Below are positions 2,465 through 37,294 of a DNA stretch of 61,023 nt, one piece after another. Each line of letters starts with the position of its first letter. The first letter of the stretch is position 1. The stretch spans positions 1 through 61,023 of the forward strand of contig CAVFFR010000004.1 of assembly GCA_963621875.1 (NCBI GenBank). The letters run 5' to 3'. The notes beneath the pieces were generated by a model. That model was not told the origin of the DNA and did no database searches. It saw nothing but the letters and a program-made list of their open reading frames with translations. This DNA is from Bacteroidaceae bacterium. GTDB lineage: Bacteria > Bacillota > Clostridia > TANB77 > CAG-508. Both the position numbers and the translations under genes were made by a program.

Positions 2465-4270
2465 TTGAAAGAAAATAAAATTAGTACAAAACCAAATAAC
2501 CAAAAAACCATTTCATCTATTGTCGGCTCTGTTAAAAAGTATCTTTATAAAATTTTTTATGAAGATAGTCCAACAGATTATGATTTTACTATTGGAGAAA
2601 CTACAAATTCTGTTGTAATCGATAAGAGTGCAACCTTTCCTTCTAGCACAGAGAATTTAGAACTAACAAATGAAAGTTTACAATGTTTTGATACTAGTAA
2701 AGATACTGTCTTTCAGTCTTTGGATGTTAATTTAGAGTATATTAAAGTTAGGTTTAATAGTATGGTCAATTCTGATGTTATTATTCGTGAATTTACTCTG
2801 AACGCCAGAGGTAAGCAATACAAGGCTTTCCTTGTTTTCATTGATGGTATGATTAATTCTGATATGATTAATAATTTTATTTTAAAACCTTTGATGTTGA
2901 AGAATACTGCTAATTCTTTTGACGGCTCTCAAAACAGAGTCTTGTCTGAAGTTAAGACTAATAATATTACTGTTAGGAAGGTAAAGAAATTCGACATTTT
3001 GGAGTATATTTCAACTTGTTTGCTACCTCAGAATGCTGTGAATAAATTTACTAAGTTTGATGATATTATAGCTGGTATTAATTCTGGTAATTGTGCATTG
3101 TTCTTAGATACTATAAATTTTGCTTTTGATATAGAGGTTAAAGGTTTTAGTCAGCGTGGTCTTGGAACTCCTGAAAATGAGATTGTTATTAGAGGTGCTC
3201 AGGTTGGATTTACAGAAAATTTGCGTACTAATACTTCTTTGCTAAGACGCTATGTTAATAACGAAAATTTAATTATTGAATCCACTAAAGTTGGTAAGAT
3301 TAGTAAAACACCTTGTGCAGTTTGTTATTTAAAGAATGTTGCTAATTCTGACTTAGTCGCTGAAGTTAAATATCGTATTAATAATCTTGGTGTTGATTAT
3401 CTGATTTCTTCTGGACAATTAGAGCAATTTATTCAGGATGATGATAATTCGAGTATTCCACAAATGGTTTCTACCGAAAGACCTGATAGAGCCTGTAATT
3501 TGCTCTTTTCTGGTAGGGTCGTAATTTTAGTAAATGGAAGTCCTTATGCTTTAGTTGCACCTGCTATATTTTCAGACTTTCTTGCATCTTCTGAAGATTT
3601 AAATTTAAAACATCAATATTCAAATTTTATAAGAGTATTAAGAATTATCGCATTTGTAATTTCGCTATTTTTACCAGGTCTTTACATTGCTATTACGAAT
3701 TTTCATCAAGAAATTATTCCGACAGAATTGCTATTTGCAATTGTTGCTTCAAGAGAAAATGTTCCTTTTCCTATTCTATTTGAAATTCTTGTTATGGAAT
3801 TTTCTTTTGAGCTTATACGAGAAGCTAGCATTAGAGTTCCCTCTCCTATTGGTCCAACTATAGGCATCGTAGGTGCTTTAATCTTAGGTCAAGCAGCGGT
3901 TGAAGCAAATGTAGTAAGTCCAATACTTATTATTATAGTTTCTATTACTGCTATATGTTCTTTTGCTGTTCCTGATTTTTCTTTGGGATTTCACTTTAGA
4001 ATTATGCGTTTCTTTTACATTATTTTAGGTGCCATTGCAGGTTTTCTAGGACTTGCTGCAGGTTTTTGTATTCATCTAATTGTTTTATGTAATTTAAAGT
4101 CCTTTGGAGTACATTTTTTTGAGATTAATTTGTTCCAAAATCCTAAAACGGCTAGTGGCACAATTTTATCTCCTGCTTGGAAAAGAGAAGATCGTCCTAG
4201 TTTTCTTAAGTCTAAAAGGCCAAAGATTCAAGATGATATAAGTATAAAATGGAGATATAATAAAAAATAA
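2465..4270 (+). CDS. Spore germination protein, GerA-family A subunit.
   Basis: GerA-type soluble domain plus C-terminal TM helices. The likely start is TTG 2465, 6 nt after GGAGG (2454-2458). The ORF-track start at 2393 lacks an RBS. Confidence 0.85.
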   Translation: MKENKISTKPNNQKTISSIVGSVKKYLYKIFYEDSPTDYDFTIGETTNSVVIDKSATFPSSTENLELTNESLQCFDTSKDTVFQSLDVNLEYIKVRFNSMVNSDVIIREFTLNARGKQYKAFLVFIDGMINSDMINNFILKPLMLKNTANSFDGSQNRVLSEVKTNNITVRKVKKFDILEYISTCLLPQNAVNKFTKFDDIIAGINSGNCALFLDTINFAFDIEVKGFSQRGLGTPENEIVIRGAQVGFTENLRTNTSLLRRYVNNENLIIESTKVGKISKTPCAVCYLKNVANSDLVAEVKYRINNLGVDYLISSGQLEQFIQDDDNSSIPQMVSTERPDRACNLLFSGRVVILVNGSPYALVAPAIFSDFLASSEDLNLKHQYSNFIRVLRIIAFVISLFLPGLYIAITNFHQEIIPTELLFAIVASRENVPFPILFEILVMEFSFELIREASIRVPSPIGPTIGIVGALILGQAAVEANVVSPILIIIVSITAICSFAVPDFSLGFHFRIMRFFYIILGAIAGFLGLAAGFCIHLIVLCNLKSFGVHFFEINLFQNPKTASGTILSPAWKREDRPSFLKSKRPKIQDDISIKWRYNKK

Positions 4271-35403: not shown

Positions 35404-35479
35404 GCTACCATAGCTCAGTAGGTAGAGCGCAGCCTTGGTAAGGCTGAGGTCACCAGTTCAATTCTGGTTGGTAGCTCCA
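35404..35479 (+). tRNA. tRNA-Thr (anticodon GGT).
   Basis: Hand-folded. The acceptor stem is GCTACCA/TGGTAGC, the anticodon stem is CAGCC/GGCTG with loop TTGGTAA, and the T arm is ACCAG-TTCAATT-CTGGT. CCA is encoded. Confidence 0.93.
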
Positions 35480-35488
35480 TTTTTGTAT

Positions 35489-35562
<74 letters not shown>

Positions 35563-35633: not shown

Positions 35634-36546
35634 TTGCCCCAAAATATCATCCCAGAAAGGATGGTGCCTGTAATGAAGATAATTAAACATGAAATACAAT
35701 TTGAAGAAAGTTTAAAACAAAGACTTGAATTTATATGTGAGTTTTCTAAAGTAACCCCTACTTTTGTTAATGGCAGTATTAGAAAGTTAGATAAAACTAA
35801 TCTCTCATATAATAGTAGATGGTACAGGATTAGCAACGAGTAGAAAAAAATATAATGAAAATTGTTTAGCAAAAAATAAAACAGATAAAAACGGAAAAGA
35901 ATACAAAGAATATAGTACATATGTATTAGAAGCAAAATTAGTAGTAGGAGAAATGGTATTTAGTATAGGAAGTGAATTTGTAGAAAATGTAAAAGAGAAT
36001 GAAACAAAACAAGATTGTGAAACAAAAGCATTTAAGAGATTAGCAAAAAAAATAAAAAATGAATATCCGAAATTAAAAATCTTAATATCAGGTGATGCTC
36101 TGTATGCAAATAAACCAGTATTAGATATATGTAAAGAAAATGGATGGAAATATATAATAAGATTTAAAGAAGGAGCAATACCAAGTTTATATAATGAATT
36201 TGAAACGGTAGTTGCAAAAGCAAATGAAAGCACAATAAAAGATTATGAGTATGTAACAGGATTAGACTATCAAGAGGAAAAAGTAAATATAATAAAATAT
36301 ACAAATAAGAAAAGAGGAACAGAATTTGTATATATAACAGATTTAACAATAACAAATAAAAATATAAAAGTCACAATAGAACTAGGAAGAAGAAGATGGA
36401 AAATTGAAAATGAAGGATTTAACATACAAAAAAATAGAACATTCGATATAGGTCATTTATATAGTAAAAATCAAGTAGCAATAAAAGTACATTATCTCAT
36501 GATACAAATTGCTCATATACTTAGACAATTATTAGAAAAAGGATAA
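35634..36546 (+). pseudogene. IS4-like DDE transposase, N-terminally truncated and frameshifted.
   Basis: The catalytic triad context is recognisable: VDGTG (35815-), ISGDALYA, and RRRWKIENEGFNIQKN, which matches the Y-R-E-K type motif. The frame changes near 35790-35815 between the 35634-35843 ORF and the ORF ending at 36546. Confidence 0.65.
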
Positions 36547-36630: not shown

Positions 36631-36659
36631 TTGACTTTTCTTAATTATCTGTGTATAAT
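36631..36659 (+). promoter_or_regulatory. Near-consensus sigma-A promoter of the candidate antitoxin sRNA.
   Basis: TTGACT (36631-36636), a 17-nt spacer and TATAAT (36654-36659). Confidence 0.65.
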
Positions 36660-36666
36660 AAATATA

Positions 36667-36760
36667 GGAAATGAATAACCGCAGTGAATGCGGTTACCAC
36701 TACATAAAAGTATAACAACACATTCGCAATATTGGCATAGTGGAATGTGTTGTTATTTTT
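36667..36760 (+). ncRNA. Candidate antisense (antitoxin-like) sRNA of about 94 nt.
   Basis: It runs from the predicted TSS after the promoter above, through hairpin AACCGCA..TGCGGTT (36677-36696), to a terminator with a 12-bp stem (36714-36725 with 36743-36754) plus ATTTTTATT. It overlaps the stop codon and 3' UTR of the convergent small ORF. Confidence 0.5.
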
Positions 36761-36872
36761 ATTCCTTATCTATAATTGAATTTACATATTTTATGTATAT
36801 AATCGTCAATAAGGCTACGTTTATTGTTGCTGATACCATTAAGGCATATATTAAAAAAAGTATAAAACTCAT
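36759..36872 (-). CDS. 37-aa hydrophobic peptide, type I toxin-like (MSFILFLIYALMVSATINVALLTIIYIKYVNSIIDKE).
   Basis: Translated by hand because it is below the ORF-track size cutoff. It has a strong RBS (GAGGTGGTG) just upstream of the ATG, one predicted TM helix, a charged C-terminus and a hairpin terminator downstream. Confidence 0.55.
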   Translation of the reverse strand: MSFILFLIYALMVSATINVALLTIIYIKYVNSIIDKE

Positions 36873-36958
36873 AAACACCACCTCACTTTCTGATAACAAA
36901 AGTTATCGAGTGCAGTGGCAACACATATCTACTACTATGTTCATTTCCTATGCTAGCT

Positions 36959-36987
36959 AGTATAACATACCATTTACAATAAATCAA
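36959..36987 (-). promoter_or_regulatory. Extended -10 sigma-A-type promoter for the small-peptide mRNA.
   Basis: On the minus strand: TTGATT (36987-36982), a 17-nt spacer ending in TGT, and TATACT (36964-36959). This gives a 5' UTR of about 80 nt. Confidence 0.5.
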
Positions 36988-37294
36988 TACAAAAAGAACA
37001 AAAATTCGTAGATGTTTTTTTCAAATATAAAAATACAGCAGAAGAAATTGTTTTGAATGAATATGTTTTTATATAAATAATCTTCAAAAAAGAGGAAAAA
37101 CTATCAAAACAATTTAATTCCCTTTTTATATATTTTTAAATTTGGGAGTAAAACTTGTGTCTAGCAAGCAATGAATTTATACTCCCGCACAAATTCCTAT
37201 GTGGGAAAATCCCAAACTCCTTAATGGAAATAAAATATTAATTTACAAATAATTTTAATTGTAAATTGTAATTTTTCGAGATGATTGTAGCATA

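Follow-up and report, generated by a model that had tools for sequence, protein, structure and literature searches.

A candidate toxin-antitoxin module of type I that has a bsrG/SR4-like RNA design in the chromosomes of uncultured gut Clostridia

Toxin-antitoxin loci of type I easily escape detection, since annotation misses peptides of this size and the antitoxins are RNAs, and few such loci have been reported by surveys in Clostridia outside C. difficile (PMC6563280). In the bsrG mRNA, nt 1-35 pair with nt 232-262 (helix P1); binding of SR4 opens P1 and frees nt 1-33, and the helix at the Shine-Dalgarno (SD) sequence is extended from 4 to 8 bp (PMC3834814). The antitoxins of the B. subtilis systems bind the 3' ends of the toxin mRNAs and promote their decay, and SR4 acts likewise; RatA drives the decay of txpA through RNase III, and no refolding of the leader was seen on RatA binding (PMC6562991). 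In case of Fst/RNAII and SprA1/SprA1as, the sRNA pairs with the 5' region of the mRNA outside the overlap (PMC8594479). The C. difficile toxins CD2517.1, CD2907.1 and CD0956.2 are peptides of 34-59 aa with lysine-rich tails, and are located in prophages or beside CRISPR arrays (PMC6563280).

In our study, a locus comparable to these systems was analysed in a stretch of 61,023 nucleotides (the window, with a G+C content of 29%). The original prediction had proposed a type I toxin-antitoxin-like layout for it, and all the elements of the module were found again in the sequence at the positions given there. On the plus strand, the predicted promoter of the antisense (antitoxin) sRNA (TTGACT, 17 nt, TATAAT; 36631-36659) agrees with the consensus at 11 of 12 positions. 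The predicted sRNA of about 97 nt (36666-36763, plus strand) would start with the single-stranded segment AGGAAAUGAA, followed by hairpin 1 (36676-36696), an unpaired CCACUAC and a terminator hairpin (36712-36756), and would end in a U-run (36757-36763) which overlaps the toxin stop codon. The terminator stem comprises 14 bp (36712-36725 with 36743-36756) and is followed by TTTTTATT; the terminator and the sRNA as first proposed are thus retained, with a stem of 14 instead of 12 bp and a predicted length of about 97 instead of about 94 nt.

On the minus strand, the toxin promoter has its -35 box, TTGATT, at 36987-36982 and its -10 box, TATACT, at 36964-36959, separated by 17 nt of which the last three are TGT (36967-36965, extended -10). 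In the predicted 5'UTR of about 79 nt (36873-36951, minus strand), the 5'-terminal strand is AUAGGAAAUGAA (36951-36940) and the anti-SD region is GUUGCCACUGCAC (36922-36910); a small hairpin follows at 36907-36892, and the SD GAGGUGG (36884-36878) is located 5 nt ahead of the start codon. The toxin ORF MSFILFLIYALMVSATINVALLTIIYIKYVNSIIDKE (36759-36872, minus strand) runs from the ATG at 36872 through 37 codons to the TAA at 36761-36759. The 3'UTR (36664-36758, minus strand, the extent of its 3' end being deduced) would be the target of the sRNA, and it contains the shared hairpin (36756-36712), a local hairpin (36698-36674) and two pairing strands: GUAGUGGUAAC (36703-36693) has its partner in the anti-SD region, and UUCAUUUCCUAU (36675-36664) in the mRNA 5' end. 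The toxin mRNA and the sRNA share their 5' start, AUAGGAAAUGAA (36951-36940 and 36664-36675, respectively), in which an SD-like AGGA stands beside an AUG. In some relatives, gene callers join the upstream AUG in frame to the toxin and give 61-aa products (e.g. P0001). An sRNA-encoded peptide starting from the ATG at 36671 was considered and rejected, as it has no usable SD spacing and its frame is not conserved across the hairpin covariation.

The features of the module in a single window are no more than expected by chance: the surrounding 4 kb contain 54 ORFs of at least 20 aa, and 16 promoter-like sites were counted in the region against 19.7 in shuffles. It is because of the comparison with relatives that the observation exceeds chance. 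Further copies of the module were not found within the window. A scan of one genome per species located the unit of about 360 nt at a minimum of 125 loci, 80 of which (L001-L080) were retained for study. All the loci belong to uncultured Clostridia from the guts of humans, rabbits, goats, deer and mice; two copies are present in several genomes. Judged from these relatives, conservation extends to both predicted promoters and the ORF, as well as to the sRNA fold and to the anti-SD/SD and 5'-3' helices, and this conservation of each proposed part supports the originally suggested layout. We consider it probable that the locus is a chromosomal type I toxin-antitoxin-like module of a new family with a bsrG/SR4-like design, in which the toxicity of the peptide is a prediction.

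The boundaries of the unit and its promoters were studied in an alignment of 69 distinct copies, in which high identity spans from the toxin -35 box to the antisense -35 box and the flanks are unalignable. Just 5' of the toxin -35 box a T-rich, partly conserved stretch with TTTGTTY(GC) is found (36988-37010 in the window and at the same place elsewhere), and this could be a UP element or a regulator site. In many loci (L005, L019, L031, L041, L080, L063, L064 and others) the contig of the metagenome-assembled genome (MAG) ends inside the module or less than 100 nt away from it, which suggests that repeated module copies break MAG assemblies.

Working promoters are characterised by fixed hexamers and spacing together with a drifting spacer sequence. 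The antisense promoter is the best promoter-like site in a scan of 2.5 kb, and its -10 box is TATAAT in 68 of the 69 copies; as its -35 box, TTGACA was read 45 times and TTGACT 23 times, and its spacer measures 17 nt in 68/69 copies with 42 different sequences. The convergent plus-strand promoter of the original prediction gains support from this pattern of hexamers and 17-nt spacing being kept while the spacer drifts. The toxin promoter has a -35 box of the form TTGnnn across the 69 copies, weaker than the antisense -35, and a -10 box reading TATACT in 35 and TATAGT in 26 of them; 50 different spacer sequences were counted, and the spacer is 17 nt long in 67/69 copies.

The 37-aa product has the character of a small membrane peptide, with one hydrophobic helix (Kyte-Doolittle values up to 2.35 in a 19-residue window) and a short polar tail, and in size and helix it matches the hydrophobic ORF below 60 aa that type I loci carry. 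The C-terminal tail NSIIDKE is less charged than that of many type I toxins. The original likening to Fst, TxpA and BsrG does not extend to detectable homology; Pfam, NCBIfam and PADLOC gave no family match for six variants of the peptide. A protein search with the 46-aa TTG-extended frame as the query recovered 37 homologous database proteins, all metagenomic, all of uncultured gut Clostridia and none named, many of which are exactly 37 aa long and 75-95% identical. The peptide family is narrow, because a profile search among 1.84 billion cluster representatives matched only 46 proteins. Exact look-ups of the 37-aa and the 46-aa products gave no match, and no paper printing or describing the peptide was found in the literature.

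The ORF (ATG, 37 codons and stop) was found intact in 77 of 82 copies, which encode 56 distinct peptides, and the block from SD to ATG, AAAGTGAGGTGGTGTTTATG, is identical in 63 of the 69 aligned copies. The value of pN/pS is 0.48 in frame compared with 0.75 and 1.44 in the other two frames, which on the aligned copies would be only moderate constraint, and the second codon position of the ORF is the most conserved. The expectation that the 37-aa ORF would be conserved in homologous loci was upheld by these data. Moreover, a nucleotide profile revealed more divergent copies, often 0.1-2.5 kb from the main copy (L007:4591-4937, L018:4770-5114, L036:763-1108, L046:34-376, L054:3295-3667, L060:2070-2409, L064:334-687, L066:5379-5719, L067:574-918 and L068:992-1088, the last detected only in its sRNA-like part). 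These paralogs keep the full RNA layout, with SD, start codon and hydrophobic ORF at the same place, and encode different hydrophobic peptides of 33-38 aa, e.g. MGFILFLIYALGFSLTINVALLTIIYIIWTNKE and MIEAILLEIIYLLLFALVVETIIVFALIIFIVFLSK. Decayed copies were also seen: in L079:2914-3196 a 13-nt deletion brings a stop after three codons, and in L072 and L076 (near 2992) the N-termini are altered, and in all of these the sRNA is kept.

These observations bear on the reading of the unit as a non-coding repeat, that is, a MITE-like element or a structured RNA in which the ORF is incidental. A length of about 360 nt, several copies, variable contexts and two unit ends that are alike in inverted orientation would suit such an element. 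However, the ORF is kept and has its lowest pN/pS in the coding frame, the divergent paralogs have kept an SD and a start codon in place, followed by hydrophobic ORFs 33-38 aa in length, the inverted similarity begins at the transcription starts and not at the unit ends, and the flanks have no target-site duplication (6.4 nt vs 6.1 nt in the control). On this evidence a non-coding repeat is highly improbable, and a MITE with terminal repeats and target duplications is rejected.

The neighbourhood of the copies was found to be diverse. The neighbour genes are not shared, with no cluster present in more than 5 of the 80 loci, and they are mostly housekeeping genes with a few mobile-element genes; a larger mobile element is ruled out on these grounds. 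The association of the copies with tRNA and tmRNA genes is strong: around the copies there are 51 tRNA/tmRNA genes in 409 kb, and such genes lie within 1 kb of 26/80 loci. Of the 48 genes within 3 kb, 46 face the module with the tRNA 3' end, 29 of them from the sRNA-promoter side and 17 from the toxin-promoter side. In the window the tRNA genes (35404-35562) are arranged likewise, with an IS4-type fragment in between; this truncated transposase (35634-36546) comprises a 69-aa ORF upstream and a 197-aa ORF whose match to the DDE_Tnp_1_4 model (435 positions) is confined to positions 199-377. The setting originally noted, an IS4-like pseudogene with tRNA genes, is thus general in its tRNA part, and the IS fragment is particular to the window.

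It is conceivable, and in our estimate improbable, that the module is a self-contained selfish unit which settles specifically downstream of tRNA/tmRNA genes and whose expression may be tied to tRNA transcription, for instance by read-through from the growth-rate-controlled tRNA promoters. If so, the antitoxin supply or the firing of the toxin would follow the growth state. tRNA-derived att repeats across the module were looked for and rejected, with one exception, a 32-nt tmRNA repeat in L023. This repeat (L023:3255-3286) is a direct copy of the tmRNA 3' end located between the module and the tmRNA gene (3400-3761), and it looks like a leftover attachment site.

Most characterised Gram-positive type I systems reside on phages or plasmids. 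No match to the module was found in phages or viral contigs by DNA or protein, and this absence counts against the type I reading. In plasmids, also searched by DNA and protein, only a 46-nt remnant was matched. It lies in a Levilactobacillus brevis plasmid (NC_012551.1; L081:1501-1546), is 89% identical to the toxin 3' end and encodes ..NYVISIIDKE and a stop, with a hairpin after it. This stretch occupies an unannotated gap beside a recombinase and IS5, was found in four Lactobacillaceae plasmids, and may be the remnant of a related module.

The genomic data also bear on the possibility that the same two RNAs encode and control a benign small membrane protein, e.g. a modulator of a transporter or sensor, with the antisense RNA tuning its level. 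The polar tail is short and weakly charged, and the copies are chromosomal and often among housekeeping genes, as would be expected of such a protein. On the other hand, several copies in one genome, paralogs that diverge in tandem, decayed copies and the lack of a conserved partner gene, with each neighbour cluster in at most 5/80 loci, are usual in type I toxin loci rather than in accessory membrane peptides. Further, control of the SD in two layers and an antisense promoter nearer to the consensus than the sense promoter argue against a benign product. We regard it as quite unlikely, and the toxin reading is followed below.

The antisense sRNA predicted in the window has two hairpins and a minimum free energy (MFE) of -30.7 kcal/mol (z -4.2). 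When 29 representatives were folded singly, all 29 gave one and the same order, with hairpin 1 first, then a short unpaired stretch, the long terminator hairpin and finally the U-run, and with stem sequences that differ among them. The sRNAs were aligned by a covariance model, as MAFFT misaligned the divergent hairpins; under this model the sRNA strand scored 90-125 bits and the opposite strand about 30. In this alignment, which is fitted to the model and so biased towards the structure, 96.5% of cells are paired compared with 25-47% with slid partners, and 17/21 pairs change on both sides compared with 3-7. An sRNA that ends at a hairpin and T-run had been predicted, and the covariance search speaks for it through a fold kept by compensatory changes. 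With its conserved promoter, fold and terminator, the predicted gene would supply an antisense RNA able to pair with the toxin mRNA, as type I systems possess. Rfam searches (12 kb; 411 bases) gave nothing above noise.

The predicted sRNA is perfectly complementary to the toxin 3'UTR, and the overlap measures about 97 nt at most and goes no further than the stop codon. After the shared hairpin, the U-run is poorer in the toxin direction (mean 4.1 T in 8 nt) than in the sRNA direction (5.3), and read-through of the toxin transcript past the hairpin is plausible. Direct pairing of the sRNA with the SD through ACCAC was considered, and the divergent members were found to have CCAA, CCGU or CCAU instead. 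The part of the sRNA which mirrors the 5'UTR is kept in divergent members.

Folding of the toxin mRNA was analysed with RNAalifold on a covariation set of 29 transcribed regions. The local structure consists of the anti-SD/SD helix around the small hairpin; 87.3% of its cells pair and 23 pairs vary on both sides, where slid partners give 38-52% and 9-16, respectively. The anti-SD/SD helix itself is 91% paired in the 29 members and is kept where the SD differs, so that the mRNA fold is predicted to sequester the SD, as in type I toxins. The small leader hairpin is 95% paired, with 5 of 6 pairs changing on both sides.

RNAalifold also revealed a long-range structure, in which the mRNA 5' end pairs with the sequence opposite the sRNA start and the leader GUUGCC pairs with GGUAAC of the 3'UTR. 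The paired cells amount to 90.9% and the pairs varying on both sides to 21, where slid partners reach 35-56% and 7-14, respectively; the two long-range helices are 93% and 88% paired. The compensatory sets in these helices include GC15/AU8/GU6, GC15/AU12 and UA12/GU7/AU6, and natural variants of the paired ends include GGAAAUGAA/UUCAUUUCC and AGAAAAUGAG/CUCAUUUUCU. For the local and the long-range structures alike, none of 500 shuffles matched the observed values. Further, G-U cells outnumber A-C cells in the long-range helices (56 vs 13), and this excess fits pairing in the mRNA strand rather than mere repeat identity. The sRNA exactly complements the 3' strand of the long-range helix, which accounts for the likeness of the sRNA 5' half to the toxin leader.

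For the full-length mRNA an MFE of -89.2 kcal/mol (z -7.46) was obtained, with about 45 nt of the leader paired to the 3'UTR; an mRNA truncated behind the shared hairpin forms the anti-SD/SD helix. The anti-SD/SD and the long-range helices compete for one anti-SD. When the 3'UTR was blocked in silico, the unpaired probability of the SD fell from 0.20 to 0.10, and a fall was seen in 25 of the 29 members. The predicted change in SD accessibility is small, the SD staying largely in pairs throughout the modelled states.

From these elements a mechanism modelled on bsrG/SR4 can be proposed, which we infer by analogy with that system. On the toxin side, a moderately strong extended -10 promoter would give an mRNA of about 250-295 nt for the 37-aa single-helix membrane peptide, with the SD held in a helix with the upstream anti-SD. 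On the antitoxin side, a near-consensus convergent promoter would give the two-hairpin sRNA of about 97 nt, whose terminator is shared with the toxin gene. As long as the full-length mRNA is free, some 45 nt at the start of the 5'UTR, including the anti-SD, would be paired to the 3'UTR. The sRNA would bind the same 3'UTR segment, and the long duplex formed by the two would be a substrate of RNase III, while the released 5'UTR would let the anti-SD close fully on the SD. The sRNA would in this way destabilise the mRNA and block its translation, a dual action which would follow from the duplex cleavage and the 5'UTR release. The refolding of the leader onto the SD is the weakest step of the mechanism, because the modelled effect on the SD is slight and none of the states leaves the SD mainly unpaired.

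The main alternative in mechanism is a type I module of the hok/aapA kind, in which the full-length mRNA is an inert store that needs 3' trimming and the sRNA mainly triggers decay. The very stable full-length fold (z -7.46), together with an SD that is mostly paired in it (unpaired probability about 0.2), would suit an inert store, and the hok and aapA mRNAs use their 5'-3' interaction in this manner (PMC6733600). However, the long-range helix of the module captures the anti-SD and not the SD, the mRNA without its 3'UTR is predicted to be more closed at the SD and not more open, and 3' trimming would remove the target of the sRNA as well. This alternative is accordingly judged to be rather unlikely, and the bsrG/SR4-like mechanism is preferred.

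The family has clear boundaries, more than 100 natural variants and covariation sufficient to read the RNA design without experiment, and its natural variants are ready-made compensatory mutants for tests of the mechanism. The presence of this design in an unrelated sequence family of a distant lineage suggests, by analogy, that the dual-action design of bsrG/SR4 may be more widespread. An annotation model for the module would improve the annotation of gut Clostridia, as the module lacks annotation and appears to break many MAG assemblies.

In comparison to the known systems, the layout is one common to the Gram-positive families with an antisense RNA on the 3' side (PMC8594479). The hok/Sok and aapA/IsoA systems likewise have a 5'-3' long-distance interaction in the full-length mRNA which is conserved by covariation (PMC6733600). 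These systems are Gram-negative; in them the anti-SD is part of the mRNA 3' end, and the antisense RNA lies over the 5' part or the ORF. In the module, by contrast, the anti-SD and the 5' terminus are the pairing partners of the mRNA 3' end, which is also the part opposite the antisense RNA; a 3' end sequestering the SD along with an antisense RNA over the 5' part was not found. In case of Fst/RNAII (par of pAD1) and SprA1/SprA1as, convergent genes with a shared terminator and an ORF not covered by the sRNA are common to these systems and the module (PMC8594479). Unlike in them, the 5' half of the module sRNA is identical to the 5'UTR and not complementary to it, and the repeats are inverted in place of the direct repeats through which the sRNA of Fst/RNAII complements the translation initiation region of the toxin. 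An Fst peptide or RNAII fold was not detected, with no Pfam match and an Rfam fstAT score of 14.4 bits against a threshold of 72.

The clostridial systems CD2517.1/RCd8, CD2907.1/RCd9 and CD0956.2/RCd10 of C. difficile resemble the module in their convergent overlapping genes and previously unannotated toxins (PMC6563280), and no similarity to them was detected. Convergent transcription with 3' overlap is also shared with txpA/RatA of the B. subtilis skin element, as would be the antitoxin-driven decay through RNase III, whereas TxpA has 59 aa and RatA 222 nt, and no homology was found. As in the TxpA/BsrG group, a convergent sRNA lies over the mRNA 3' end; the overlap of 100-140 bp including the 3' part of the ORF, characteristic of that group, is replaced by one of at most about 97 nt which touches the stop codon only. 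Sequence searches for this group gave no match in Pfam, NCBIfam or Rfam, and none by tblastn in phage records.

The closest resemblance is to bsrG/SR4 of the B. subtilis prophage SPbeta (and the similar bsrE/SR5). In that system, and by prediction in the module, the toxin has 37-38 aa and one membrane helix, the mRNA is about 290 nt long and a convergent sRNA overlaps its 3' end. The mRNA 5' end lies in a long helix with a 3' segment, the 3' strand of this helix is the antitoxin target, and the SD is in a short helix which, in the module by prediction, can be extended once the 5' strand is freed. The 5'-3' helix of the module is supported by covariation and overlaps the sRNA target, and its opening on sRNA binding is what we infer. 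The bsrG/SR4-type convergent layout had been proposed originally, and the likeness is closer than was claimed, as the 5'UTR pairs with the 3'UTR segment covered by the sRNA. The module differs in that no sequence similarity was found, its sRNA is about 97 nt long with two hairpins whereas SR4 has 183 nt and four, the overlap barely touches the ORF, and the sRNA terminator hairpin is inside the toxin 3'UTR. Moreover, it is chromosomal and beside tRNA genes rather than in a prophage, and its hosts are uncultured gut Clostridia. Hence, from its sequence, the module appears to be a new unannotated family of a known kind, which is predicted to work most like bsrG/SR4.
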